Shown in pieces: positions 2,664 through 31,633 of a stretch of 64,000 bases of DNA. Position 1 is the stretch's first letter, and each line of letters opens with the position of its first letter. Location of the stretch: contig JAVBNQ010000003.1 of assembly GCA_031551405.1 (NCBI GenBank), positions 124,001 through 188,000 on the forward strand, read 5' to 3'. The notes under the pieces are model-generated. The model saw only the letters and a list, made by a program, of their open reading frames with translations. It did no database searches and had not been told where the DNA came from. Position numbers and translations under genes: made by a program. Source of the stretch: a bacterium. GTDB lineage: Bacteria > RUG730.

Positions 2664-3353
2664 TTACTTTTTATTTAACATAAAAAATAGATATTTCATA
2701 TTTACGTCTAACTCGGACAAAACAATTTTAATTTTATTTGAAAAGAAATTAAATGCTACAAGCATAGGAATAGAAATTATCAATCCAAACGCAGTTGTAA
2801 CCAAAGCTTCCGATACTCCGGACGCAATAACGGAAGGTCCTCCTGTCCCCGACGCAGCTAAATCCGAGAATGCTTGAATAATTCCGGTTACGGTTCCCAA
2901 CAGTCCCAATAACGGCGAAATAGCGGCTGACGAACCAATTAATACTAAAAATTTTTCCATGTTTTCTTTTTCTTTGACTCGAGCTATTTCGTATAATTCT
3001 TCTAATTCTTCCTTATTTTTTTCCCTATTCGTTATTATTAACTTTATAACATTATTAAGTGGATTATTTTTTTTAAGCGTTTCATTTAAAAGTACATCAA
3101 CATTTTGTTCTTTTAGCATAAGCTCCACTTGTTTCATTATTTTTGTAGAAGAAAATTTTATGCTTAAAAAATAAAAAGTTCTTTCTAAAAGAAAAATTAA
3201 AGAAATAACAGAAACCGCTAAAATCGCCATCATTACAAGACTTGACTTTAATAATAAAATATAATCTATTTGTCCTAAATTTTGCTCTTTTGCATAAATT
3301 AGTCCTGAAAAAAGTGGAAGAATTATTAGGAAGCTAAAAAGTTTTTTTTTCAT
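2664..3353 (-). CDS. exbB: MotA/TolQ/ExbB proton channel family protein
   Basis: SPLLGLLGTVTGIIQAF and GVSEALVTTAFGL signature helices. Confidence 0.92.
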   Translation of the reverse strand: MKKKLFSFLIILPLFSGLIYAKEQNLGQIDYILLLKSSLVMMAILAVSVISLIFLLERTFYFLSIKFSSTKIMKQVELMLKEQNVDVLLNETLKKNNPLNNVIKLIITNREKNKEELEELYEIARVKEKENMEKFLVLIGSSAAISPLLGLLGTVTGIIQAFSDLAASGTGGPSVIASGVSEALVTTAFGLIISIPMLVAFNFFSNKIKIVLSELDVNMKYLFFMLNKK

Positions 3354-3371
3354 TTTTTTTACCTCTATTTT

Positions 3372-6300
3372 TTATTTATTTCCCAATCTGGCGTTTATAG
3401 AACGAATCCAATCTTTATTTGTCGTATAGAGCAGAATTTCTCTATAAATAGAATCTGCGTTTTCTTTCATGTTTTTATTTTCATATATTTCCGCTAATTT
3501 TACAAGCCCGGATAATCTTGTAGTATTTTCTTTAGGAGCCATAGATAATAATTTTGAATATTCTTCTATTGTTTTATCTGTCTTAAATTGCTTTTCATAA
3601 CAATCTGCAATTTTGTATTGCGCATATATTCGTTTTTCATCTGATAAATATGGAGTTATAAAGCGTAAAACTTCTATAGCTTTATTATATTCTCTAACAT
3701 TGGCGTAACTTTCTACGACTTCCAGTACTACTTGAATTGCATCTTCATCTCTAGCGTCGCTTAGTTTGTAAAAATTTAGAAAAGCTAAACAAGATTTTTC
3801 TATATCGTCGCTTTCTCTGTAAGCCAAACCTAAATTATAGGCTACTAGTTTTAAGTTTTCAGATTTTGGGAATAAAACGTTAAATTGCTCATAAACATGA
3901 ATACATTTATCATACATTTTTAAATTAAAATAAGAAGTTCCCAGTCTTATATAAGCTTTTTCAATGTTTTTAGATTTTATAAAATTAGTTATAAAAATTT
4001 GATAATTTCTAGAAGCCTCGGAATAATTTTTTAAAAAATAATAGGATTCCGATATATAGTAGATAGCAGTCTCTAACTTTGAAGCTTCCAATAACGAATA
4101 ATTATTTGAATTTAAAAAACGTTGAAGCCACGGAATTGCTTTTTCATATTCGCCTTCTTCAAAATAATGCGTTCCAATATCAAGAATTAATGACGTTGTT
4201 AATTTTAATTTTGGATTTGCTTGAATAAAACTACGAAATGCCGTCTCAAAATCTTCAGCAATTTTAATTTGAACTGTTTTTAAACCTTTTAAATAAGCGT
4301 TATATTCTTGTCTCTTATAAAGAGTGGATTCAAGTTGAGTAATTGCTTCGGAGGTTTTTTCAGTTGCAGGATATTGTTTTATAAAATCTAAAAATTCAGT
4401 TATAGCCTGATCATATTTTTTGTTATTGTAATAAGATTGAGCTATACGTAATTTTGAGTCTATTACTTCGGGTATATTTTTATCATATTTAGAACAAATA
4501 AATTTGTACATTTCAATCGCTTCAGCATATTTCCCGGATTTATAATAAGTATCCGCGACTTTATAAGTGATACTTAACGATTTTTTATTATTTGGATATT
4601 TTTTGATAGCTTCTTGCCATTTATTTAGCGCTTCCGAATAATACTCAGACATATAATAGCAATTTCCGAGATTTAAATAAGCGGAAATGTTATATTCTTC
4701 AATCGGTGAAATTTTTAAAAAATATTCATAAAACTCTATCGCTTTCAAATAGTCCTTTTTCATGAAATATAGATTTGCCAAATCATAAGAATTTAAATAT
4801 TTTAAATCGTCTGTTACAGTATTGCTTTTTGTTAAAATTTCCTGAATAATTTTTTTATACTCTATAGCTTTCTCATAATTTTTTTCTTTTAATTCGCACC
4901 AAGCTAAACCGTTAATTGCTTCTACATAAATTAAGTCATCTTTTATATATACATTCGCTATCTTGGAAAATAAATTTTTTGCCTCTTTAAAGTAATTGAA
5001 TCTATAACATGTGTCTGCAATAATGAAATAACTTTTTATATTCTTAGAATTTTTGTCTTTTGGATCCAAAGTAAGCCTTAGCTCATTTAATAAAAATTGA
5101 TAATCTGTAGCGATTACGTTATATTCGTTTCGATTATAACTAATATAATTTAACATGAAAAAGGCTTTTGTTAGCAAATAATTTAAATTTGCTGACTTTA
5201 GTTGTGAACTTTTATCTACGACTGCTTTATAATCTTGTTTTGCGGCTTCTAAATCTCCTTTTTGGTATTTAAGATCTGCCAAAAAAGCGTGCATTTTGAT
5301 AATAACTTCAGTTAGGGAAACATCAGATTTTATGCTGTTCTCTAAGATATTTTCAGCTTTTTCAAAATCATTTTTTATGTATTTAATCCAAGCCAAAATT
5401 AAATTTATTTTTAATCTAGTTTGTTTGTTGTTTACAAGATTTGCGGCTTTTTCAAAAAATACAGAAGCTTCGTCATAGCGTTTTAACTCATAATACGAAT
5501 AACCTATCAAATATAATGACATGAAATATAAATTTACTTCTCCATCATTAGATTTTATAATATTTCCGGGAGCATTTTCATTGATTTTTGAAAGATATTC
5601 AATTGACTTTAGATAATCTTTCGTATTTATATAACAACAAGCAATTTTATAATTCACGTAGTTTTTTGCTATATCATTTTGATATTTATCTTGAAATTGC
5701 AAAAAATTTGAAATGGCTGTTTTATAATCTTTTAAATTATATAAATTTTCGCAGACACCCAGAGCGGCTAAATTCGCATATACCGGATCATCTATTAATT
5801 TTTTATTTTCACCCAACGCAAATAAATCTTGATTTTTTTTCGTATAACAACGAGCTAAAAAATATGTTGCATTATTAGAATTGCAAGTTTTGAAACACTC
5901 TATAGCTTTATCGTAACTTCCTAAAATAAAACTTAAAAAACCTAATGCCATTCTAGAATTTTCATTATAAATTTGCGTATTTTGTTGAATAAAGTTTTCT
6001 AAAAATAAAAGATCATCTTTATTGTATTTTCCAGAATCGTTTAGAAATTTTATATAATTTATGATTTGTAAATAAGCAAAATCTTGTTTTAACCAGTAAT
6101 TTGAAGGGAATTTTGAACAAATTTTTGAAGTTTTATTAAAATCGTTTAAATTTAAATAAGCTTCAGCTATTCTAAGTTTAGCATTTAGCGCTAAATAGCT
6201 ATTTGGATTTTTCATTAGACTAATAACGTATTCATAATTGAAAATAGCTTTTAATAGAAGATCTGAGAATTCTTTATTTTTTAAGTTTGTTTTTTTATTT

Positions 6301-6680
6301 TGTATAAAACTTTTTAAAACATAACTTTCACCTATTAAATAATAGGCATTTAGAATTAAATAATTATTCGGATACTTTGCTATAAATTCATTTAACGATA
6401 TTATTATATAATCTAAATGTTCATCGTCTTCATCTTTTAAAGCGTTTACATTAATAAAGTAATTATTATATAAGTCGGCATTATCTAGATCTAGAAAATC
6501 ATATTCTGCATCGGATCTATATTTTTCTATGTCATTATAGAAGTCGGCAATATCTAGAAAATCATATGTTGCATCGAATCCATATTTTTCTACTCCATTG
6601 TCAATAATAAAATCTATACAAAAAATATTTGATAAAGTTAATACAAAGATGATAAAAATTAAAGAAAATAATTTTTTCAT
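3372..6680 (-). CDS. Large secreted tetratricopeptide-repeat protein (1102 aa)
   Basis: Signal-peptide-like N-terminus and many TPR units (e.g. AYLNLGNCYYMSEYYSEALNKWQEAIKKYP, LRIAQSYYNNKKYDQAITEFLDFIKQYP). GAGG RBS. First gene of the operon. Confidence 0.85.
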   Translation of the reverse strand: MKKLFSLIFIIFVLTLSNIFCIDFIIDNGVEKYGFDATYDFLDIADFYNDIEKYRSDAEYDFLDLDNADLYNNYFINVNALKDEDDEHLDYIIISLNEFIAKYPNNYLILNAYYLIGESYVLKSFIQNKKTNLKNKEFSDLLLKAIFNYEYVISLMKNPNSYLALNAKLRIAEAYLNLNDFNKTSKICSKFPSNYWLKQDFAYLQIINYIKFLNDSGKYNKDDLLFLENFIQQNTQIYNENSRMALGFLSFILGSYDKAIECFKTCNSNNATYFLARCYTKKNQDLFALGENKKLIDDPVYANLAALGVCENLYNLKDYKTAISNFLQFQDKYQNDIAKNYVNYKIACCYINTKDYLKSIEYLSKINENAPGNIIKSNDGEVNLYFMSLYLIGYSYYELKRYDEASVFFEKAANLVNNKQTRLKINLILAWIKYIKNDFEKAENILENSIKSDVSLTEVIIKMHAFLADLKYQKGDLEAAKQDYKAVVDKSSQLKSANLNYLLTKAFFMLNYISYNRNEYNVIATDYQFLLNELRLTLDPKDKNSKNIKSYFIIADTCYRFNYFKEAKNLFSKIANVYIKDDLIYVEAINGLAWCELKEKNYEKAIEYKKIIQEILTKSNTVTDDLKYLNSYDLANLYFMKKDYLKAIEFYEYFLKISPIEEYNISAYLNLGNCYYMSEYYSEALNKWQEAIKKYPNNKKSLSITYKVADTYYKSGKYAEAIEMYKFICSKYDKNIPEVIDSKLRIAQSYYNNKKYDQAITEFLDFIKQYPATEKTSEAITQLESTLYKRQEYNAYLKGLKTVQIKIAEDFETAFRSFIQANPKLKLTTSLILDIGTHYFEEGEYEKAIPWLQRFLNSNNYSLLEASKLETAIYYISESYYFLKNYSEASRNYQIFITNFIKSKNIEKAYIRLGTSYFNLKMYDKCIHVYEQFNVLFPKSENLKLVAYNLGLAYRESDDIEKSCLAFLNFYKLSDARDEDAIQVVLEVVESYANVREYNKAIEVLRFITPYLSDEKRIYAQYKIADCYEKQFKTDKTIEEYSKLLSMAPKENTTRLSGLVKLAEIYENKNMKENADSIYREILLYTTNKDWIRSINARLGNK

Positions 6681-6933
6681 GAATACGTCCTCACTATTTA
6701 TCCTTATTTATTTTTCGCTATTGTAATCAAAACCGCGATTTCGTTATTATTTTGTGAATTTTGAAAAGTTTCAGGCTTTGAATGTTTTTCAAGCATAATT
6801 AGCATAAATTTTATTAAAAATGATTGTCAAAAGATAAGTAAAGATACTGTTAATCTGCTTATTTTGACTTCTTAAAATATTTATATCTGAAATTTATTTG
6901 TTTTTCCTGTTTTTTTAAGCTAAACGTTTCTTG

Positions 6934-7311
6934 TTATGTTATCATTTTTGCAAAAAACATTCCAATTACAACGCCTAATATGCTCAACCCGAGATTTAAA
7001 ACAATGTTTCCGGTAGCAAGTCCATATTTTCCGTTTGAAAAAAAGATTACTGTTTCAAGGCTAAAGGCAGAAAATGTGCTAAGTCCGCCGAGAAGTCCAG
7101 TTGTCAAAAATAATTTTGTTTTTGGTTCAATGGAGACAGACTGTTTTTCCAAACCGATTATAAATCCAATCATTATTCCTGCAATGACGTTCGATAACAA
7201 TGTTCCGAGTGGAAACGAAATTTGAAAATAATCACAAGTTTTGGTTAAGCCATAGCGCAAACACGAGCCGATAAATCCGCCAATACCGACTGCGCCAAAT
7301 TCTAACATCAA
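6934..7311 (-). CDS. crcB: Fluoride efflux channel CrcB/Fluc
   Basis: GGFIGSCLRY, FPLGTLLSN and TTGLLGGLSTFSAF motifs. Confidence 0.95.
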   Translation of the reverse strand: MMLEFGAVGIGGFIGSCLRYGLTKTCDYFQISFPLGTLLSNVIAGIMIGFIIGLEKQSVSIEPKTKLFLTTGLLGGLSTFSAFSLETVIFFSNGKYGLATGNIVLNLGLSILGVVIGMFFAKMIT

Positions 7312-7352
7312 ACGCGCTCCTTAAGATTGCCAAATGCCTAATTAGTCTGGAT

Positions 7353-7556
7353 TTATTTTTTGCTTTTCGCTATTGCAATAACAGCTGCAATTTCGCTGTC
7401 GTTTTTATTTGTAAAATTATTTTGATCATTGCCGCCAGAAGTAGCTTTAGCGAATTTGCCTAAAAGAACTACCATTATTTTTACTAAAACTGCGACTAAA
7501 AGTGAAATGATAATTGTCAAGAGATATGTAATTAGTGAAATTGTTAATCCGCTCAT
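7353..7556 (-). CDS. OadG-like gamma subunit of a Na+-translocating decarboxylase
   Basis: Small single-TM protein with the C-terminal EIAAVIAIA motif, directly after the beta subunit, GGAGG RBS. Confidence 0.7.
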   Translation of the reverse strand: MSGLTISLITYLLTIIISLLVAVLVKIMVVLLGKFAKATSGGNDQNNFTNKNDSEIAAVIAIAKSKK

Positions 7557-7565
7557 TTTTCCTCC

Positions 7566-8813
7566 TTATTTTATAAAACTACAAAATATCCCGGCAATAA
7601 TTGCAGTAGTAATAACTCCACTTATGTTTGCGCCAAGAGCTTGAGGTAAAACTATGGAATTTGGATTTGCTTTTGTTACAATTTTTTGAGCGACTTTTGC
7701 AGTAGTTGGGACACAGCTTACTGCAGCTATTCCAATCACTGGATTGTATTTTTTTCCGGAAATGAAATACATAAAATATCCACCGATTATTCCGCCGATG
7801 CCTGACAAAAGCAATGACAAAATTCCGAGTAAAAGTAAAGGCAAAACTTTTGGACTCATAATCGTAGTTGCCTCACACAATACTCCTAAAAGAAGACCTA
7901 AAAACATTGTTGATAAATAAAGAATTGGTCCTTGGAGAAGTTCAATAAATTGTTTGACTCCGGATTCTCTGATGACTACGCCAAAAAATAAAGAGAAAAG
8001 TAAAGGCGCTGCAACAGGAAGTAAAAACGATAAAATCACACAAGCAACAACTGCAAAAAGCATTTTTTCGCCTGATGTAAATTCTCTCTGTTTTTTTTCT
8101 TCCATTTTTATGGCTTGTAATTTTTTTGGAATGGTAAATTTTATTAGGTAAGGAAACCCGCCGTAAGCAAGTCCCAAATAAAGATAAGCTACAACTGCGA
8201 TTGGAACGAATAATTCAGGAGCGAGTTTGAGAGATGTGAAAAGAACCATCGGACCGTCTGCTCCGCCGACTATAGAAATGGCGGCAGCCTGTTTAGTCGT
8301 ATATCCAAACATTGTTGCTATAGGAAGAGTCATAATTGTTCCGAGCTCAGCAAAAAGAGCTACAATCATACTCACGAATGGTCTTGCCATTACAAAACCA
8401 ACGTCGAGAAGCGACCCGATTCCCATAAAAATCAAGCAAGCAATAAGTCCATTGCTAAAAGTAAAATTATAAATCGGTTGAAGCCAGTCTATTTGAAGCA
8501 TTGTCATAATGTGGTCATTATTTACGAGAGTAGGATCTACGAACAAAGTTCCCATTTTGAGAGGATCTATTGGATTTCCCATCGCTATATTGAGAGGATC
8601 AAAAAACATGATAGAAGCATTGACAACAGCCATTCCAAGTCCCATCGGAATCATAAGAAGAGGTTCGAGAATTCCTTTTTTCCCCAAGTAAATCAGCAGT
8701 AAGCCCAAAATAGTCAGTCCAATTCTAGCTATTGCCATAGTTGGGCTATTTGAAAAGTCTAAGGCTAAAGTTTGAAATCCTTGAAAAATTCCCCAAATTG
8801 AATCCATGTACAT
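7566..8813 (-). CDS. oadB: Sodium ion-translocating decarboxylase beta subunit (OadB/MmdB/GcdB family)
   Basis: EPLLMIPMG, IVGGADGP, NPVIGIAAVSCVP and ALGANISGVI motifs. Confidence 0.93.
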   Translation of the reverse strand: MYMDSIWGIFQGFQTLALDFSNSPTMAIARIGLTILGLLLIYLGKKGILEPLLMIPMGLGMAVVNASIMFFDPLNIAMGNPIDPLKMGTLFVDPTLVNNDHIMTMLQIDWLQPIYNFTFSNGLIACLIFMGIGSLLDVGFVMARPFVSMIVALFAELGTIMTLPIATMFGYTTKQAAAISIVGGADGPMVLFTSLKLAPELFVPIAVVAYLYLGLAYGGFPYLIKFTIPKKLQAIKMEEKKQREFTSGEKMLFAVVACVILSFLLPVAAPLLFSLFFGVVIRESGVKQFIELLQGPILYLSTMFLGLLLGVLCEATTIMSPKVLPLLLLGILSLLLSGIGGIIGGYFMYFISGKKYNPVIGIAAVSCVPTTAKVAQKIVTKANPNSIVLPQALGANISGVITTAIIAGIFCSFIK

Positions 8814-9601: not shown

Positions 9602-9781
9602 AAAGATTTATATTTTTAAACTTCAAAAAATTGAAACATTCTAAACGATAAACTTAAAAGTGTCAAATTTTTTATTTTTTACTTGTGTGAGACATTAAAA
9701 TTATGATCCCCAAATTTTCACAAATTTTTATTGCAAAAAATAGACATTTTTATTTCAGCTTGACAAATACAAACAAAAAAC

Positions 9782-23661: not shown

Positions 23662-24018
23662 ATGGGTTTTTTTGAGTTTATTTTAGTTTTTTTATCAATT
23701 TTTGTACTTTTTTCTCCACTTTTTTTGTTTTTTATGCTATTAAATATAGACTATGAAATTTTAGAGGACAGATTGAACTTTAAATTTTATAAGTGGAAAT
23801 TGCGCACGATCATGTATTCGAACATAAAAAATATCAAACCATTTAAACAGTTTCCATCTATAAAATACGAAAAATTTCCGTTTAATAATGCAATAATGAT
23901 AGATTTGTATAAAGCGCCAATTTTAAATTTTTCACAAATAGTGATAGCTCCTAAAAATCGTGATGAAGTCGCAAACATACTTGGCGAAAAAATTAATGCT
24001 TACAAACTCAAACAATAA
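23662..24018 (+). CDS. Small membrane-anchored hypothetical protein (possible bacterial PH domain)
   Basis: AGGAGG RBS; N-terminal TM followed by a beta-rich segment and IAPKNRDE helix. Confidence 0.65.
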   Translation: MGFFEFILVFLSIFVLFSPLFLFFMLLNIDYEILEDRLNFKFYKWKLRTIMYSNIKNIKPFKQFPSIKYEKFPFNNAIMIDLYKAPILNFSQIVIAPKNRDEVANILGEKINAYKLKQ

Positions 24019-24685
24019 AAAATTAGTAATTTTTGATCTCGATGGCACTATTTGCGATTCGATTTCTGATATTGCTAAAACTTTAAATTTAACTCTAACA
24101 GAATTCGGGCAGAAAACTGTCGAGATAGATAAAATCAAAGCTGCGGTTGGTAGCGGACTTTTCACGCTTATAACGGAAACTTTACATGAAGATTTTGTAA
24201 ATGACGACGAAAAAATACGTCAGCTTTACTCACGTTTTCTTGATAAATATTTGGAAATAATGTCGGAAACTTCGACTTTGTACCCCGGAATCACAGAGCT
24301 TTTGAAAGATTTATCTCAATACGATTTTGTAAAAAAAGCCGTTATTTCAAATAAACATGAAAAAGCTTGCAAAATCCTATTGAAAAATTTGGATATCGCT
24401 CAATATTTCGATTTTATAGCAGGAGAAGATACGTTTCAGGAAAGAAAACCAAGTCCTATTCCGATATTTTGCGTTTCAAAAAAATTAAACGTAAAACTCG
24501 AGAACACGATTATGATTGGAGACGGAATGAACGATGTTTTGGCGGCTAAAGCGAGCGGAATAAAAAATATCATGGTTTCTTATGGATACTCACCGCTTGA
24601 TAGTATTTTACGGGAAAAACCAGATTTTGTAGCTAGCAATGTTTCAGATGTGAAAAAGTTAGTTTTTGAATTTTGTGGAATTTAG
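23996..24685 (+). CDS. gph: HAD-family phosphatase (phosphoglycolate phosphatase-like)
   Basis: IFDLDGT, SNK, RKPSP and MIGDGMND motifs. Start set at ATG 23996. Confidence 0.85.
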   Translation: MLTNSNNKKLVIFDLDGTICDSISDIAKTLNLTLTEFGQKTVEIDKIKAAVGSGLFTLITETLHEDFVNDDEKIRQLYSRFLDKYLEIMSETSTLYPGITELLKDLSQYDFVKKAVISNKHEKACKILLKNLDIAQYFDFIAGEDTFQERKPSPIPIFCVSKKLNVKLENTIMIGDGMNDVLAAKASGIKNIMVSYGYSPLDSILREKPDFVASNVSDVKKLVFEFCGI

Positions 24686-24702
24686 ATTAATAGAGTCGAA
24701 AT

Positions 24703-25380
24703 ATGGAAAATATATTTATCTTAAAAATTAAAAGTTTGTCAGAAAAAATTTTTACTAATTCAAATTTTATTGACGATATAAAATTAGAAAAAATCGTAAA
24801 ATACATAGACTTTTTAAAGGAAGAAAATAAAAAAATAAATCTGATATCTCGAAAATCTACCGACGAAGAAATTGTGGAACGGCATATTTTAAGCTCATTA
24901 TTATTTGCAAAACACATAAAAATTTTGCAGGGAAAAAATGAAATAAAAAGGCTTGTAGACATTGGTAGCGGATCAGGTTTCCCGTCAATAATTTTAGCTA
25001 TTTGTTTCCCAGAAATTTATGTTGCAGTTGTTGATTCTATCCAAAAAAAAATCGATTTTTTGTACGATACTGCAAAATTGTTAGACTTAAAAAATGTAGA
25101 TTGTTTTTGGGGAAGAATAGAAGATTTTGGCGAGGCAAAAGGTTTTATGCAGACTTTTGATGTTTGTACAGCGAGGGCTCTTGGAAGTTTAGAGCTCACG
25201 ACAGATTATAGCCTTCGATTACTAAAACCTGACGGCGTTTTTGTGACAATAAAATCGTTTGATCAAGAAGCAGAAATTTCTAAAAGTATCGCAACGCTCG
25301 AGAAACAAAAAATAAAATTTGAAATTTTAAACGAAGAAATAGACAAGAGTTTTATAATTTTGTCGAAAGTTTTTTTATAA
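24703..25380 (+). CDS. rsmG: 16S rRNA m7G527 methyltransferase
   Basis: KINLISR, VDIGSGSGFP, DSIQKK, GRIE, TARA motifs. Confidence 0.93.
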   Translation: MENIFILKIKSLSEKIFTNSNFIDDIKLEKIVKYIDFLKEENKKINLISRKSTDEEIVERHILSSLLFAKHIKILQGKNEIKRLVDIGSGSGFPSIILAICFPEIYVAVVDSIQKKIDFLYDTAKLLDLKNVDCFWGRIEDFGEAKGFMQTFDVCTARALGSLELTTDYSLRLLKPDGVFVTIKSFDQEAEISKSIATLEKQKIKFEILNEEIDKSFIILSKVFL

Positions 25381-25402
25381 ATTATTATTTTGGAGGGGGA
25401 AA

Positions 25403-27013
25403 ATATTAAATAAGGTTCAGAGGCGTGATTTCCAAAGATTTCAAATTGACCACACCTTACCCATTTCAATAATTAACGCACAAAATTTAGTAGAAGCAAA
25501 AGGCGAAACTTTAAGTATAAGCAGAAAAGGTTTATGCGTAAAATTAGATCGAGATTTTTCTGTTTTTGAACGAATAGAATTGATATTAAATTTCCAAAAT
25601 GATAAAAATTTTACCTTGAAAGGCAGAATTATTTGGCATGACAAAGCTACGTCGTCATACGGAGTCGATTTATCAGAATATGAGACAAATTTTCCGGATT
25701 ATTTCGAAGGGTATTTGTCTGCTCTAGAAACAACAAAAAAAGTAATTGATAGACGTGAAAAAACAGATAGACGAGAAACAAAAATAGACGGTGAAAATCT
25801 TAAAACTAGAAAAACAGATAGACGTGAAGAAAAACCGTTTTTTTTGAAATGTAAAAAATATAATTTAATTAAAAATTTAATGAAAGACGGAAATTGTTTC
25901 TTTTTACGAGAGCTCGCAACAGGTTCGATGAATAAAATTATCGTCAATGGCAAAGAGTTTTTAAACTTTGGTTCAAACAATTATTTAGGTTTGACATATC
26001 ATCCTGAAGTTAAAGAAGCCGGAATAAAAGCAATTGAAAAATACGGATTAGGTTCAGGTGGTGTAAGAGTATTGAGTGGAACTATTGATTTACATAATCA
26101 ACTTGAAAGAAAATTAGCTAATTTTAAAGGTGGAGAAGATTGTATTGTATATCCATCTGGATACAGCGGGAACGTCGGAGTAGTTTCCGGATTGGCAGGC
26201 AAAGACGATGTTTTAATTATTGACGAAAAAGCACACGCGAGTTTGATTGATGGCTGCATTTTATCCGGAGCAGTTTTTGAAAAATTTAGGCACAATAACT
26301 TGGAAGATTTAGAAAAAAAATTGAATAAATATAGTAATAATCAATCAAGATTGATTATTACAGACGGAGTTTTTAGTATGGACGGGGATATCTGTCCTTT
26401 GCCAGAATTATATGCGATAGCAAATAAATATAATGCTGCTATCTTGGTTGACGATGCACATGCCACAGGAGTCATAGGAGAAAATGGTCGTGGTACTGCT
26501 TCGCATTTTGGGATGGAGGGAAAAATTTCGCTTAATGTCGGAACTTTGAGTAAAGGACTGGGCAATATCGGTGGATTTACAGTTGCTAGTAAAGACATCG
26601 TCCATTATCTGAAACATAACAGTCGAGCGTTTTTATTTAGCACGAGCCTTCCACCAAGCATTTGTGCAGGCACTATGAAGGCAATAGAAATATTGGAACG
26701 AGATACAACTATAATGGACGCTTTATGGAGAAATATAAAATTTTTAACCAGCGAGCTACAAAATTTGGGTTTTGATTTAGGCGATACAAAAACAGCAATA
26801 ATTCCAATTATGGTTTATGATGATGTAAAAATACACAAATTCGTAAGATTATTGGCTGATGAAGGTATATTTTTGAATTCCGTGATTTATCCCGCCGTAA
26901 AAAGGAAACAAGCTAGAGCACGGCTTAGTCTGATGGCGACACATACGCAGCAAGATTTGGAAATTTTGGTGTCTATCCTCAAAAAGGCTGGAAAAAAGAT
27001 GGAGATAATTTAA
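25403..27013 (+). CDS. PilZ domain fused to a PLP-dependent alpha-oxoamine synthase (BioF/Kbl/SPT family)
   Basis: The frame is open upstream of the track start (25580): QRRDFQRF..LSISRKGLCV..KGRIIW..YGV (PilZ), then DRR repeats, then SNNYLGL, HASLIDG, SMDGD, DDAH, GTLSK. GGAGG sits 6 nt before an ATA codon at 25403. Confidence 0.85.
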   Translation: MLNKVQRRDFQRFQIDHTLPISIINAQNLVEAKGETLSISRKGLCVKLDRDFSVFERIELILNFQNDKNFTLKGRIIWHDKATSSYGVDLSEYETNFPDYFEGYLSALETTKKVIDRREKTDRRETKIDGENLKTRKTDRREEKPFFLKCKKYNLIKNLMKDGNCFFLRELATGSMNKIIVNGKEFLNFGSNNYLGLTYHPEVKEAGIKAIEKYGLGSGGVRVLSGTIDLHNQLERKLANFKGGEDCIVYPSGYSGNVGVVSGLAGKDDVLIIDEKAHASLIDGCILSGAVFEKFRHNNLEDLEKKLNKYSNNQSRLIITDGVFSMDGDICPLPELYAIANKYNAAILVDDAHATGVIGENGRGTASHFGMEGKISLNVGTLSKGLGNIGGFTVASKDIVHYLKHNSRAFLFSTSLPPSICAGTMKAIEILERDTTIMDALWRNIKFLTSELQNLGFDLGDTKTAIIPIMVYDDVKIHKFVRLLADEGIFLNSVIYPAVKRKQARARLSLMATHTQQDLEILVSILKKAGKKMEII

Positions 27014-27014
27014 T

Positions 27015-29830
27015 ATGACTTGGCAGATAGCGACTAGTTTTTCAGCTGGATTTTTTTCTTTATTCATGGCTTTTTTTATTTTACGAGGAAAAATAGACAT
27101 CATAAAAATTATTTTTTCGTTATTAAATTTAACGATTTCGACTTGGAATTTCGGAGATATCCTAATAAGTTTTAGTCGAAACACTAGTAGCGCTTTATTT
27201 TTTGATAAAATTTCGTATGTTGGTGCTTTTTTTATTGCGCCATTTTTTTGCTTTTTGATTTTAGTTTTGACAAATAAGTATAAAGATCCTTTGTTCCGAA
27301 AATTCATAATAATAAATTTTTGCGTAGCCACTATTTTTTCTATACTTAATTTATCAACAAATTGGTTTTTAAAAAACGTTAAAATTCATCCTTCTTTTGT
27401 AGAAGAAATTGGGCCATTGTATTATGCATTTATCTTTTTTTCTTTGTTAATTTTGATCATAAGTATATGTATTTTATATTCTGCCTATAAAAAAGAAAAA
27501 TTACTTTTTTAAAAAAACCAATTGAAATATATTTTAAGCTCGCTTTTTATTGGGTTTGTTGCAGTGGTTGTGTATTTTATTTGGGTTATAAAACATAATT
27601 TTTTTGTTATGCATTATGTGATAGAAATATTGTATTTGCTTACTCTATATTATGCAATCGTAAAATATGATATTATCGACGTGGATGTTGTTTGGAGACA
27701 GGTTGTAAAAAATATTATTTACTTTTGCATATTTTTGATAGCTATTTTATGTTTATCTTTTGGGGTCTACAATAGCTATTCTTCAATTATTGTAACTTCG
27801 ATATTATTTATTTTTTACCTCGTCTATTCAAAACAAAAAATTTATGACTCATTAAATAAATTATTCATTAAAAAATATATTATAGTTCAGGAAAATCTAA
27901 AAGCAGTTGGCAAAATTAAAAACGATATTTACGATAAAGAAAAAATTGCAAATATTTTAGTAAAAGAAATATCTTCTATTTTGGATTTAACGTATGCAGC
28001 ATATTTTGAATGCAATAGAGAGGAAAAAAAATTACAAATTGATTGTAGATTATTCAACAGGTCAAATGGATGAGACAAAAAAAGTTAAAGAAATAAGTTT
28101 GAACAATAAGCTTGTAGATGAATTAATACAAAAAAAAAATTATTTATATACAGAAGATATCGTTCGAGACGTAAAAAATGAAAAATTAGTCGAGATAATC
28201 CAAGAAATAAATTCTGTCTTATGCTTTCCAATTTTTTTAAAGCGTAATCTAGAGGGAATTTTATTTTTTGGCCAAAAAAAGAATGATACGATATTTCACA
28301 AAGAGGACTTAGAGGTTTTGGAAGAAACAGTCATGCATGCTTCTAGGCAATTAGAGTCAATTGCAAACTATAAATTTTTATCTGAAAGGCATGCTGCTGA
28401 GGTTTTGGCAAATTACAAATCCAAATATCAACTTGAGCTCATAAATGAAATAAAAAATCTTGGACGGATAAACGATATAAACAAACTCTGTACTCACGCA
28501 CAAAAAGTTATAAATCGCCTTTTAAACGGAAGTGATACAAGTATTTATCTTTATGACGAGAAAAAAAGTGTTACGAGTATAAAGGCGATCTTTCAAAACT
28601 CGACGGAAAGCCAATGGAGATTTCTGAAAATGAATACTTTATAAGTTACCTCAGGCAACAAGAGGCTATAATTTCAATCGATAATTTAAGACAAGGCGCG
28701 CGAGAAACAAAAATAAAAGAAACTGTCGAGGCTTTGGCTTTGGCTGAAAAATTGCGCGCAAAAATAATTATAATATTAAACTATTTAGAATTTGTGGGAT
28801 TTATATCGATAGAAAATAAAACTAACGCTCCTCAACCGTATTTCCAGGATGATTTCGTACTCTTGGATTTTTTGGGTGACAAGCTCGAATCTACAGTGAG
28901 AAATATTTCTCTTTACGCACAGGCAAATACTGACAATTTAACAAAACTTTCTAACCAAAGGTATTTAGAAAAACGAAGTCGTGAAGAAATTACGCGTAGT
29001 ATGAGAGAAGGAACTCCGATTTCTTTTATGATGATAGACGGAGATAAGTTCAAAGAATTTAATGATTTGGTTGGTGGACACGATTTTGGAGACGAAGTTT
29101 TAAGTGAAATTTCTTCATGTATTGAGTCGGTTACTCGCTCTAGTGAGGAATGTTTTCGTTATGGGGGAGAAGAATTTGGGGTTTTGGCGCGACTTTACGA
29201 GCCAGAAGCAAAAAAATTAGCTGAAAGAATAAACAGGGCATTCAAGACAAATACTAAAATTTTAGAATTAGAAAAAAGAGCAAATGGTAAAAAGATCAGT
29301 GTAAGTATCGGAGTAGCGACATTCCTTCCGGGAGAAACAAATAAATATCCAAATATAAACCAAACTACTGAAATATTTAGTGTTTTGAAAAAGCGGGCTG
29401 ATAAAGCGCTTTATCAGGCAAAAAAACAAGGGCGTGATCGCGTCGTAACTACGAAAACATTCAATTCCCTTACGTTTGGCAAAAAAATAGATGATTTTGT
29501 TTTTGATATTGCAATAATAGCAAACGATCAAAATTATAAAAATTTGAAGTTGCAAAATGACACTATTTCGTTAGTAAAAAGTTTTAATGACGAAAAAGTA
29601 AAGTATTGCGATGCAGTTATTTTTGACAATCCGGATGAAGAAAATAGATTTGAAGCTATTGATAAATTCAATGAAGCCCTTCGAGGGGAAAAATATATCG
29701 GAGTGGTTATAAAAAATATAAGTGATAAACAAATTTGCGATCAGAAAAATTATCATTTTTTATTCATCCTATCTCTCAAAAGGACCTGGAACAATGGATT
29801 TTTAACATTAAAATGACAGAAAATGAATAA
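27015..29830 (+). pseudogene. Interrupted membrane sensor diguanylate cyclase (HisKA_7TM-like N-terminus, two GAF-like domains, GGDEF, possible degenerate receiver); four ORF-track fragments
   Basis: Fragments 27015-27512, 27522-28073, 27994-28644 and 28614-29816 join via an in-frame TAA (27510) and shifts in A8 (28024-28031) and A7 (28561-28567). The GGDEF domain has DNLTKLSN, IDGDKFKEFND, GHDFGD, RYGGEEF, SIGVA, ADKALYQAKKQGRD. The lesions may be sequencing artefacts. Confidence 0.8.
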
Positions 29831-29854
29831 AAAAACACAGTAAAACGAGGAAAA

Positions 29855-31633
29855 ATGTCATATTTAGCTTTAGCTAGGAAATATAGACCTAAAAAATTTA
29901 CGGATATTGTTGGACAAGAGCATATTTCAAAAACCTTGGTAAATGCTCTAAAAAGTTCACGGATAGCACACGCTTATTTATTTTCCGGACCGCGAGGAGT
30001 CGGAAAAACTACGGCAGCTAGAATTTTGGCAAAAACAGTTAATTGCGAGAGCCAAGATTTGGAAAACAAGCCTTGTCTCGAGTGTCCAATTTGCAAAGAT
30101 GAAAAATTAATGGATATTATCGAAATAGACGGAGCATCGAATCGAGGTATCGATGAAATCCGCGAACTTCGAGAAAATGTCAAGTTCACGCCGCTAAACT
30201 CCAAGTACAAAGTCTACATAATCGACGAAGTTCACATGCTTACTGACCAAGCCTTTAACGCTCTCCTCAAAACGCTCGAAGAACCACCGGCACATGTGAT
30301 TTTCATTTTTGCGACGACAGAGCTTCATAAAATTCCGGATACGATTTTATCAAGATGTCAAAAATTCAATTTTAAACTCATCACTCTTGACGATATCACG
30401 AATCGCTTAAAACACGTTTTGGATGCGGAAAACATTAAATACGAGCTTAAAGCGCTCAATTCGATAGCTAGAGCTAGTCTCGGAAGTATGCGCGATTCTT
30501 TGAGTCTTCTTGATCAAGTCATAGCTTATAGCCCGGACATTGTAACACAAAAAGAAACAGATTTTATTTTGGGAATAATAAATATTGATTTGATTTTTGA
30601 AATAGTCGGAAACATTCTTGATAATAATACGAAAAATATAATAAAAATCATTGATAATTTGCTCAAACAAGGTTTCGATCTAAGTCAGGCAATGCTGCAA
30701 CTTCGCGAGCATTACAGAAATCTAATGCTATTGAAAATTGACGCGAGTTTATCGGAAATTTTGGATATTTTGCCAGAAGATTTATCGAGATATGAAGCAG
30801 AACTATCGAAATTGTCATTGGGTAAAATAACTCGCGATCTTAGGATTATAAATCTTGCGATTGAAGACATAAAACGTTCTGATTATGCTCGAGTGATTTG
30901 CGAGCTTTGTTTAACAAAACTTTCAGAGCCATATATTTCTTCCGTAGAACTTTTGCAAAAATTGAATAATTTGGAAAATTTTGAATTTCCGATGACGCAA
31001 AAAGTTCCGGAAAAAGAATATATTTTGTCAACGCCAAAAGTTTCTCCAGAGCCAAAATTAGCGTCTGAGCAGCAGAGTGAGCAAAATTTTGAGCCTAAAT
31101 CTAAACCTCAAAAAATTCAAGAAAATGATACGCAAAATAACGAAAAATTCATAGAAGTTGAAGGTTTTGATTCAAAATGGAATGCAGTTCTCGAGCGAAT
31201 AAAAAAACAAAAAATGTATCTTTTTACTTATTTGAAAGAGGCGAATGGCATCGAGTTTAAAGGGAATAATTTGTCGCTTTCGTTTGCAACCAAATTTTAC
31301 AAAGACGGAGTTTTGAAAAATAAGGAAATAATTGAAAACGAAATGTTAGAGATTTTTGGACAAAAATATAATGTTGTTTGCGAGCAAAAAATTGTTTTTG
31401 AACAAAAAAAAAAGAATGAAGAGGAGCCGGTTTTGAATGAAACCGCTAAAAAAGATATAGAAACAAATGAAATTGAAGAAAATAATGAGGACATTCCTTT
31501 TCCATCTGACGAGGATTTAGTGAGTACAAAAGTAGAAGAAAAAATTGTATACTCGCCGGATGAAATTTTTGAGAAAGAACCGGTTGTGAAAAAATTTGTC
31601 GATCTCTTCGATGGCGAGCTGCTTCCACATTAA
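29855..31633 (+). CDS. dnaX: DNA polymerase III subunit gamma/tau
   Basis: ARKYRP, GPRGVGKTT, EIDGASNRG, IIDEVHML, TILSRCQ. Confidence 0.97.
   Translation: MSYLALARKYRPKKFTDIVGQEHISKTLVNALKSSRIAHAYLFSGPRGVGKTTAARILAKTVNCESQDLENKPCLECPICKDEKLMDIIEIDGASNRGIDEIRELRENVKFTPLNSKYKVYIIDEVHMLTDQAFNALLKTLEEPPAHVIFIFATTELHKIPDTILSRCQKFNFKLITLDDITNRLKHVLDAENIKYELKALNSIARASLGSMRDSLSLLDQVIAYSPDIVTQKETDFILGIINIDLIFEIVGNILDNNTKNIIKIIDNLLKQGFDLSQAMLQLREHYRNLMLLKIDASLSEILDILPEDLSRYEAELSKLSLGKITRDLRIINLAIEDIKRSDYARVICELCLTKLSEPYISSVELLQKLNNLENFEFPMTQKVPEKEYILSTPKVSPEPKLASEQQSEQNFEPKSKPQKIQENDTQNNEKFIEVEGFDSKWNAVLERIKKQKMYLFTYLKEANGIEFKGNNLSLSFATKFYKDGVLKNKEIIENEMLEIFGQKYNVVCEQKIVFEQKKKNEEEPVLNETAKKDIETNEIEENNEDIPFPSDEDLVSTKVEEKIVYSPDEIFEKEPVVKKFVDLFDGELLPH

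Follow-up and report, generated by a model that had tools for sequence, protein, structure and literature searches.

The window analysed here is a 64,000-nucleotide stretch of bacterial DNA (G000:C11:124001-188000) from a genome of 1.21 Mb in 14 contigs, which is rated 100% complete and has a G+C content of about 34%. Between RsmG (24703-25377; Pfam GidB, E 6.8e-41) and DnaX (29855-31630; DNA_pol3_delta2, E 1.6e-44, and others) it carries two genes in the same direction. Gene 1 joins a PilZ domain to an alpha-oxoamine synthase that depends on pyridoxal phosphate (PLP), and gene 2 is a membrane sensor with a diguanylate cyclase domain. A first-pass annotation of this DNA had described the two as a unit with a 1-nt gap, and both the coordinates and the Pfam matches agree with it: gene 1 stops with TAA 27011-27013 and gene 2 starts with ATG 27015. 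We lean towards reading the pair as a conserved two-gene module of cyclic di-GMP (c-di-GMP) signalling that has decayed in this genome. The features of gene 1 are as follows.

25392-25399 (+): ribosome-binding site GGAGGGGG before gene 1, read directly; its GGAGG ends 6 nt before ATA 25403
25403-27013 (+): gene 1, PilZ domain, Arg-rich linker and alpha-oxoamine synthase resembling serine palmitoyltransferase (SPT), 536 residues (translation, Pfam)
25418-25669 (+): PilZ domain, residues 6-89 (PF07238, 38.5 bits against a cut-off of 22.5, E 1.6e-9)
25748-25852 (+): Arg-rich 'DRR' linker, residues 116-150, with three DRR motifs and ending in KPFFLKC (alignment of the fusion loci)
25955-26974 (+): PLP-dependent alpha-oxoamine synthase domain, residues 185-524 (PF00155 Aminotran_1_2, E 1.3e-54)

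Gene 1 lies in a frame of 551 codons that opens at 25358, and its first canonical start codon (ATG, GTG or TTG) is TTG 25580. The database gene call P0002 (477 aa) uses this TTG, which would halve the PilZ domain, while the closest relative, P0003, is itself 536 aa long and shares 61% identity over 100% of the length of gene 1. ATA 25403 is the sole plausible start for the PilZ part; we infer a weak start or else an ATG that has mutated, because GGAGG stands 6 nt ahead of it, P0003 aligns over the full length and TTG would cut the PilZ domain. The first-pass annotation had placed a PilZ domain with the motifs RRDFQR and SISRKG, DRR motifs and a complete synthase in this gene, all of which are borne out by Pfam and by the motif positions. 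The PilZ match is real: it clears its cut-off as listed and scores 41.7 bits in a genome-wide profile search. RRDFQR (residues 7-12, 25421-25438) follows the RxxxR pattern, and RRxxxR is kept in 29 of 32 relatives. At the second motif, SISRKG (25514-25531) replaces [D/N]xSxxG, retaining the S, x, x, G positions. The D/N position itself holds D or N in 30 of the 32 relatives (the full motif in 23/32), and within the 32-sequence alignment the gene 1 protein alone has Ser there.

The best-kept stretch of the N-terminal region is the Arg-rich linker rather than the PilZ barrel. It takes the form DRR...RR...(K)RxxDRRxxKPxFxKC, in which R117, R118, R123, R136, R140, R141, K149 and C150 are invariant across all eight loci with a fused gene. 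An AlphaFold2 model of the gene 1 protein (pLDDT 88, pTM 0.72) shows a PilZ beta-barrel at residues 12-89 and a confident synthase fold, with pLDDT above 90 across the synthase domain, and leaves linker residues 119-137 disordered. The linker is not present in the unfused relatives, nor in a second type of PilZ fusion (P0039, P0051, P0062, P0069, P0074, P0096).

The catalytic part shows the expected residues of an alpha-oxoamine synthase: the PLP lysine K384 (codon 26552-26554), H278, D350 and H353 all fall in invariant columns of alignment A1. Of the 41 columns that do not vary in the 32-sequence alignment, the catalytic lysine among them, this protein has lost none. The top-scoring NCBIfam model is that for the CFB-type SPT (NF047600, 449.2 bits against a cut-off of 640), followed by TIGR01825 (445 against 535), Kbl (NF005394, 420.3 against 460) and BioF (TIGR00858, 399.8 against 426.45); every one of these scores lies below its cut-off. 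The best solved relatives are SPT enzymes of the Sphingobacterium type (3a2b and 8guh, 352 bits over residues 149-534), with a BioF/Kbl enzyme at 293 bits and Kbl at 282. The kinship with the autoinducer synthases CqsA and LqsA that the first-pass annotation had brought up finds no support, since the CqsA-type model (NF005526) gives 204.9 bits against a cut-off of 428 and the CqsA structures give 113 bits against 352 for SPT. Among the other fusions scanned, five of six rank similarly, with the SPT model on top; at locus L016, TIGR01825 and Kbl are narrowly ahead. By these scores the enzyme is closest to bacterial SPT, rather than to CqsA, BioF or Kbl.

A quick IQ-TREE analysis of 58 rows with SH-aLRT supports, among which proven SPT and CqsA sequences are not included, groups the DRR-linker fusions in one clade (91), which a small second group joins (87). 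The linker-less PilZ fusions fall in a different clade (support 100), and PilZ has therefore probably been joined to this enzyme family at least twice. A 52-row clade (98) holds all fusions together with the SPT-like clade and leaves E. coli Kbl and BioF and the TIGR01825-type proteins outside; a 146-row FastTree agrees with this grouping. The separation from BioF and Kbl that a phylogeny was expected to probe is thus found. The gene 1 protein groups with P0003, P0007 and P0012, away from the fusions of its own phylum (L014-L016), and horizontal transfer of the gene pair is possible.

Is the fusion a peculiarity of one genome? The domain-architecture search proposed in the first-pass annotation, PilZ plus Aminotran_1_2, recovers PF07238 together with PF00155 in 26 of the best 120 matches to gene 1. 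A profile of the N-terminal region (188 positions, built from eight loci) was searched against 1.84 billion representatives and gave 1197 matches at E <= 1e-3, 44 at <= 1e-10 and 10 at <= 1e-30. Among the best 150 of the 1197, 20 proteins (520-744 aa) matched the whole profile and four were fragments, the remainder being ordinary PilZ proteins, and on these counts the PilZ-synthase architecture is rare but real. P0138 (744 aa) is a fusion with about 200 additional residues ahead of the PilZ part.

Eight fusion loci were examined in seven genomes of two phyla: G000 (the window), G004 (two loci), G005 and G006, which are four of the seven genomes examined of the window's phylum, and G275, G405 and G407, which belong to one genus and are three of the nine examined of theirs. 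Of 401 genomes sampled, 394 belong to phyla other than that of the window, and among these G275 alone has the fused N-terminus. In three genomes of the same family as the window (99, 76 and 82% complete), no fusion was found. A weak PilZ-like match in one same-family genome, G001, was considered as a fusion remnant and rejected; it is a small stand-alone PilZ protein.

In all eight cases the fused gene is followed directly, on its own strand, by a gene for a seven-transmembrane (7TM)/GAF sensor, placed anywhere from overlapping to 49 nt away (stop to stop). Its output domain is GGDEF at four loci (the window, L014 with an additional receiver domain, L015 and L016) and HD_5, a phosphodiesterase domain of the HD-GYP type, at the other four (L017 with two in tandem, L101, L102 with a second copy upstream, and L103). 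The equal use of HD-GYP and GGDEF outputs goes beyond the first-pass annotation, which had been concerned with a cyclase. No HisKA or HATPase domain was detected by Pfam in the 10 partner open reading frames (ORFs) scanned, and the partners are thus not histidine-kinase sensors of the Cqs/Lqs type. The remaining neighbours are not common to the fusion loci (they include PGI, RecG, CarB, PurF, enolase, a transposase, TsaD and a subtilase), and across the eight no gene for export or modification consistently accompanies the pair.

As a negative control we used 80 loci with unfused relatives on metagenome contigs, obtained by a profile search with alignment A1; no fusion is among the matches listed, and 53 of the 80 have at least 2.5 kb of downstream sequence. 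A sensor-like ORF adjoins the synthase directly in one of them (L046), an HD_5 gene lies one gene away in three (L021, L023 and L029, evidently one lineage), and 76 have no such gene within 4 kb. A search of genome contigs with P0001 gave one relative, unfused, from Bacteroidota. The neighbourhood conservation that the first-pass annotation wished to see is therefore present, with a sensor beside 8/8 fusions against 1/80 unfused relatives, and it is specific to the fused form. Because the PilZ match is real, the fusion recurs and the sensor adjoins every fusion and almost no unfused relative, a dedicated c-di-GMP circuit around the enzyme is a sound reading of these sequences.

The control loci also hold arrangements of their own. 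At L046 (5408-9090) the unfused synthase (6941-8143) sits between a HisKA_7TM protein with a weak GAF match (5408-6937), which has no recognised output domain, and a second HisKA_7TM protein that ends at the contig edge. L021 (6998-10606), like L023 and L029, has an SPT-like synthase, a 370-aa GNAT and an HD_5 protein in a row, a trio that looks like a further link of the enzyme family to a c-di-GMP-type phosphodiesterase domain. Among the fusion loci, L101 carries two tandem c-di-GMP-I riboswitches (5941-6037 and 6159-6253, both on the minus strand; 62.3 and 60.6 bits against a gathering score of 35) that precede a subtilase/fn3/FlgD_ig gene (3340-6015, -), divergent from the PilZ-synthase gene at 6678. 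The cyclase partner at L015 (7984-10560, G004:C390) shifts frame twice, near 8250 and near 9700, and that at L016 in the same genome is whole; G004 is a 560-contig assembly, and assembly errors are possible behind the L015 frame changes.

An ordinary BioF or Kbl housekeeping enzyme, to which a PilZ domain and a cyclase neighbour became attached by chance, is a very improbable explanation of these patterns. It would agree with the source annotations of the relatives, which read '8-amino-7-oxononanoate synthase' or 'glycine C-acetyltransferase', and with model scores that are merely modestly under the cut-offs. Against it, the genome holds a separate BioF-like gene (425.7 bits against the cut-off of 426.45), E. 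coli BioF and Kbl lie outside the 52-row clade that contains the fusions, no tdh or bio genes adjoin the pair, and a sensor adjoins 8/8 fusions versus 1/80 unfused relatives.

In the window the partner itself is broken. Its features are:

27015-29816 (+): gene 2, 7TM-GAF-GAF-GGDEF diguanylate cyclase, a pseudogene in four pieces (frames, Pfam, tblastn)
27042-27683 (+): HisKA_7TM membrane sensor region (PF16927, profile positions 4-222, 53.2 bits, with one TAA within the match)
27510-27512 (+): lesion 1, in-frame TAA at a T6/A7 junction (L101p and L103p align straight through)
28024-28073 (+): lesion 2, frameshift (tblastn frame switch between 28054 and 28103)
28561-28569 (+): lesion 3, frameshift at an A7 tract, 28561-28567
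28923-29441 (+): GGDEF domain, with GGEEF at 29163-29177 (PF00990, 125.8 bits; Pfam E 4.7e-36)

The first-pass annotation had read gene 2 as a multi-TM sensor with two GAF-like domains and a GGEEF cyclase. The sensor (HisKA_7TM, Pfam E 1.6e-13 in the gene 2 pieces) and the cyclase stand, and GGEEF agrees with the active-site pattern GG[D/E]EF. The GAF domains fare less well: GAF_2 reaches 23.8 bits against a Pfam cut-off of 28.6, and the second GAF is visible solely through homology to the intact L016 partner, which itself has two weak GAF matches. The I-site position of the GGDEF domain reads RSSE, judged against what we take to be the RxxD motif. No uninterrupted frame leads from sensor to cyclase, which are separated by the TAA and two frame changes. 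The A8 tract 28024-28031 is likely the site of lesion 2; at lesion 3, the alignments end in one frame at 28563-28569 and resume in the other at 28566 (L014p) or 28620 (L016p).

These lesions are real and no assembly noise, because a second assembler agrees and the remaining long ORFs are unbroken. That assembler's 36-kb contig, built from run X1 (depth 34; the run is labelled invertebrate gut metagenome, holds this DNA and is probably its source), covers 25300-29900 with 0 differences; the comparison checks the assembly on the same probable reads and at the level of contigs, which would overlook rare variants. Elsewhere in the window, long ORFs of up to 1148 aa remain intact despite 242 A/T runs of at least 7. 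Two other origins for the breaks, noise in the sequencing and an alternative genetic code, were considered and rejected. In this genome the loop is cut, with the cyclase dead and the PilZ part lacking a canonical start and one motif residue, while the catalytic part is intact.

Has the entire module become a relic, with both genes leaving a shrinking genome and the frame of gene 1 simply not yet broken? We regard this as a real but clearly less probable alternative. The three lesions in gene 2, the missing canonical start and degraded PilZ motif of gene 1, the genome size of 1.21 Mb and the failure to find the fusion in the three same-family genomes would all fit; by our arithmetic, at three lesions per 2.8 kb a neutrally evolving gene 1 would be free of stops and frameshifts about one time in five. 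What speaks against a relic is that 41/41 invariant columns are kept, including the catalytic lysine, that a well-placed ribosome-binding site stands ahead of ATA 25403, and that a frame of 551 codons has stayed open in DNA of 34% G+C.

A search with the first 7TM piece of gene 2 found no longer relatives; one with the GGDEF piece gave 10 cyclases, all generic, and among them no intact orthologue that is close. Within the same genome, the two 7TM-GGDEF paralogues show no match to the first half of the gene 2 7TM at E <= 1e-3, whereas the HD-GYP partners of the other phylum match it at E 8e-18 to 2e-10. Because the gene 2 7TM matches the partners of another phylum and not its own paralogues, the input module travels with the synthase while the output is swapped. 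In one further protein, P0271 (844 aa), HisKA_7TM, GAF, HD_5 and GGDEF occur together.

Elsewhere, the genome encodes three 7TM-GGDEF genes (gene 2, which is broken, and the two intact paralogues), two HD-GYP genes and two PilZ matches; no EAL gene was found in a profile search of the genome. The other PilZ match (L020, 6999-9011 on the minus strand, G000:C5; 21.4 bits with hmmscan, 25.4 bits in the genome search) forms the N-terminus of a 670-aa protein without a further Pfam match. Besides the BioF-like gene there is a second synthase paralogue, an SPT-like one (551 bits against a cut-off of 640); the fusion clade lies apart from the SPT-like clade that contains this unfused gene.

At locus L018 (8433-10737, G000:C3) a 371-aa gene of the GNAT type begins 4 nt behind the unfused SPT-like gene (stop 9617, start 9622), a find not contained in the first-pass annotation. 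This GNAT has no match among curated models or solved structures. Its entire length aligns (30% identity, E 1e-50) to the C-terminal part of P0096, a tri-domain protein of 924 aa with PilZ, synthase and GNAT. The two genes of L018 are a candidate Spt-bCerS-like pair, similar to the one in the bacterial ceramide route (PMC11334938). Homologues of the GNAT occur at 17 of the 80 control loci and at none of the eight fusion loci. Used as a query in five other fusion-bearing genomes, it was found in G005 and gave no match in G004 (97% complete), G275 (98%), G407 (91%) or G006 (55%). The GNAT gene also stands behind the unfused synthases that were matched in G303 and G100. Because the GNAT is present at 0/8 fusion loci and in one of five other fusion-bearing genomes, the fused enzyme does not depend on such an acyltransferase in general.

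These data bear on two more specific readings, each of which we take to be less likely than not. In one, c-di-GMP controls membrane lipid synthesis: the fused enzyme would be a regulated second SPT for a sphingolipid or ceramide-type pathway, and the sensor would report on how the envelope is faring. Bacterial SPT gives the best match among solved structures and among curated models, and the same genome has the unfused SPT-like gene with the GNAT 4 nt behind it, homologous in full length to part of P0096; Spt, bCerS and CerR form a known ceramide route whose genes are often clustered (PMC11334938). The scarcity of the GNAT homologue in fusion-bearing genomes, three of those without a match being 91-98% complete, the lack of a GNAT or reductase beside any of the eight fusion loci, and the separation of the fusion clade from the SPT-like clade with the unfused paralogue all argue against this scenario, which we consider rather doubtful.

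In the other, the amino-ketone or a derivative, diffusible or resident in the membrane, is a signal that the 7TM domain senses and converts into c-di-GMP, which feeds back through PilZ in a kinase-free loop resembling quorum sensing. This is likewise on the doubtful side; it refines our preferred explanation, a conserved c-di-GMP module, and is compatible with it. In its favour, the 7TM-GAF input stays with the synthase as the output alternates between GGDEF and HD-GYP, an unfused synthase is flanked by two HisKA_7TM proteins at L046, bCerS-like GNAT genes occur at 0/8 fusion loci against 17/80 loci of unfused relatives, and synthase-beside-sensor pairs of the CqsA family have been described in silico for bacteria of the Candidate Phyla Radiation (CPR; PMC7567580). 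Unfavourable are the distance of the enzyme from CqsA (113 versus 352 bits in structures; 205 versus 428 in the model), the lack of conserved export or modification genes beside the pair, and a ligand assignment that comes from gene arrangement, with no pointer to cell-to-cell signalling over sensing of the cell's own membrane. Because the input module persists as the output changes, and given the L046 arrangement and the CPR synthase-sensor pairs, it is plausible that the 7TM domain would sense the product of the enzyme or a membrane property that depends on the product.

Under our preferred explanation, gene 1 would condense a small amino acid with an acyl thioester into an alpha-amino-ketone, most likely a precursor of the long-chain-base type for lipids or a lipid-like signal. 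Intact gene 2 would be a 7TM-GAF membrane sensor, co-transcribed and probably translationally coupled to gene 1, whose output makes c-di-GMP (GGDEF) or, in other lineages, destroys it (HD-GYP). The sensor would thereby set the c-di-GMP level, and PilZ, perhaps together with the linker, would turn that level into altered enzyme activity. In this scheme c-di-GMP binding, an allosteric effect with its sign, the product and the sensor input are all predicted properties. The most elaborate version, in which an SPT-like amino-ketone, 7TM-GAF sensing, a rise or fall of c-di-GMP and feedback through PilZ form a kinase-free lipid-signal circuit with the Arg-rich linker as a new gating element, is a speculative prediction that we would call unlikely as it stands.

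Several observations weigh against the preferred explanation. The activity and binding attributed to every family member rest on sequence. The PilZ domain of gene 1 has Ser at the D/N position and no canonical start, so the cell may have stopped making this receptor, or its binding may be lost. No curated enzyme cut-off is passed, and the substrate is therefore not fixed by the family. The eight loci are not independent, because they come from seven genomes, three of them of one genus, with two loci in one genome. GGDEF partners would raise c-di-GMP and HD-GYP partners would lower it, so the loci cannot all share one wiring diagram. The partner is frame-broken in 2/8 loci (the window and L015), for which reason it may be dispensable. 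The missing bCerS-like GNAT in the searches of G004, G275 and G407 speaks, in addition, against a general role in a ceramide-type pathway.

The surroundings of the pair are housekeeping genes (Dxr, a TsaB-like gene, a HAD phosphatase, RsmG, DnaX and PdxA), and, as the first-pass annotation had stated, no bio, tdh or sphingolipid genes are found by Pfam among the neighbours. The rsmG/dnaX synteny is not kept: the two genes lie on separate contigs in the relatives that have both (G001, G003 and G004), rsmG was not found in G002, and neither was found in G006. An Rfam scan of L001 (window 23903-28510) gave no family at threshold. Promoter-like sites number 26 against 23.4 (sd 4.7) in shuffled sequences, which is no excess, and there is a single weak terminator-like site; we therefore make no claim about transcription from these signals. 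At 23662-24685 a 118-aa ORF without a Pfam match overlaps the start of the HAD-phosphatase ORF by 59 nt, and may be a small uncharacterised gene or a sign that the HAD start is mis-set.

Direct targets of c-di-GMP include polysaccharide synthases, flagellar motors, transcription factors and riboswitches. If the binding and regulation proposed here are true, the first step of a lipid or amino-ketone pathway would join them, and if the lipid-signal circuit is true, the synthesis of amino-ketones or long-chain bases would be a direct output of c-di-GMP signalling. A two-gene module with a natural swap of output between synthesis and breakdown would also offer a compact system for asking what the widespread, uncharacterised HisKA_7TM sensors detect, and its decayed copy in the window illustrates how a reduced genome loses a circuit of this kind. 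New here are the negative control, the finding that GGDEF and HD-GYP outputs are used equally, the Arg-rich linker and the decay of this copy.

In the literature searched, outside of which lay supplements and most subscription journals, we found no report of PilZ fused to a PLP-dependent condensing enzyme of the sphingolipid/biotin/autoinducer family, and no description of a synthase paired with a 7TM c-di-GMP sensor. The CPR synthase-sensor paper (PMC7567580) contains 'PilZ' and 'c-di-GMP' 0 times. The nearest layout is that of CqsA/CqsS in Vibrio and LqsA/LqsS in Legionella, where a gene of the oxoamine-synthase family likewise stands beside a polytopic membrane sensor, an arrangement suggestive of signal and receptor. 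By contrast, the output of the partner here is c-di-GMP turnover, while the Cqs/Lqs sensor is a histidine kinase that feeds a phosphorelay, and the enzyme is no CqsA orthologue; the 7TM pieces of gene 2 matched no NCBIfam model. To our knowledge, CqsA has no PilZ domain. Bacterial SPT (3a2b, 8guh) supplies the nearest solved structures and the best-scoring curated model for gene 1, which differs from the Spt-bCerS-CerR system in falling below the equivalog cut-off and in having no adjoining bCerS or CerR. In eukaryotes, serine palmitoyltransferase, which opens the synthesis of long-chain bases, is under feedback control by ORM/ORMDL, a membrane-embedded sensor of lipid status; the likeness is one of function alone, as the parts and the messenger are unrelated and no homology exists. 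PilZ domains that are part of, or bound to, biosynthetic machines are known from BcsA, with a C-terminal PilZ, and from alginate Alg44 (Galperin and Chou, bioRxiv 10.1101/814665), and this survey of PilZ architectures has 0 occurrences of 'aminotransferase' or 'pyridoxal' and does not mention such a fusion. What the gene 1 protein shares with BcsA and Alg44 is that a PilZ domain is physically joined to a biosynthetic enzyme, so that c-di-GMP would act directly on synthesis; what sets it apart is that its PilZ domain is N-terminal and is followed by an Arg-rich linker and, in place of a membrane glycosyltransferase, by a soluble PLP-dependent enzyme that condenses carbon with carbon.

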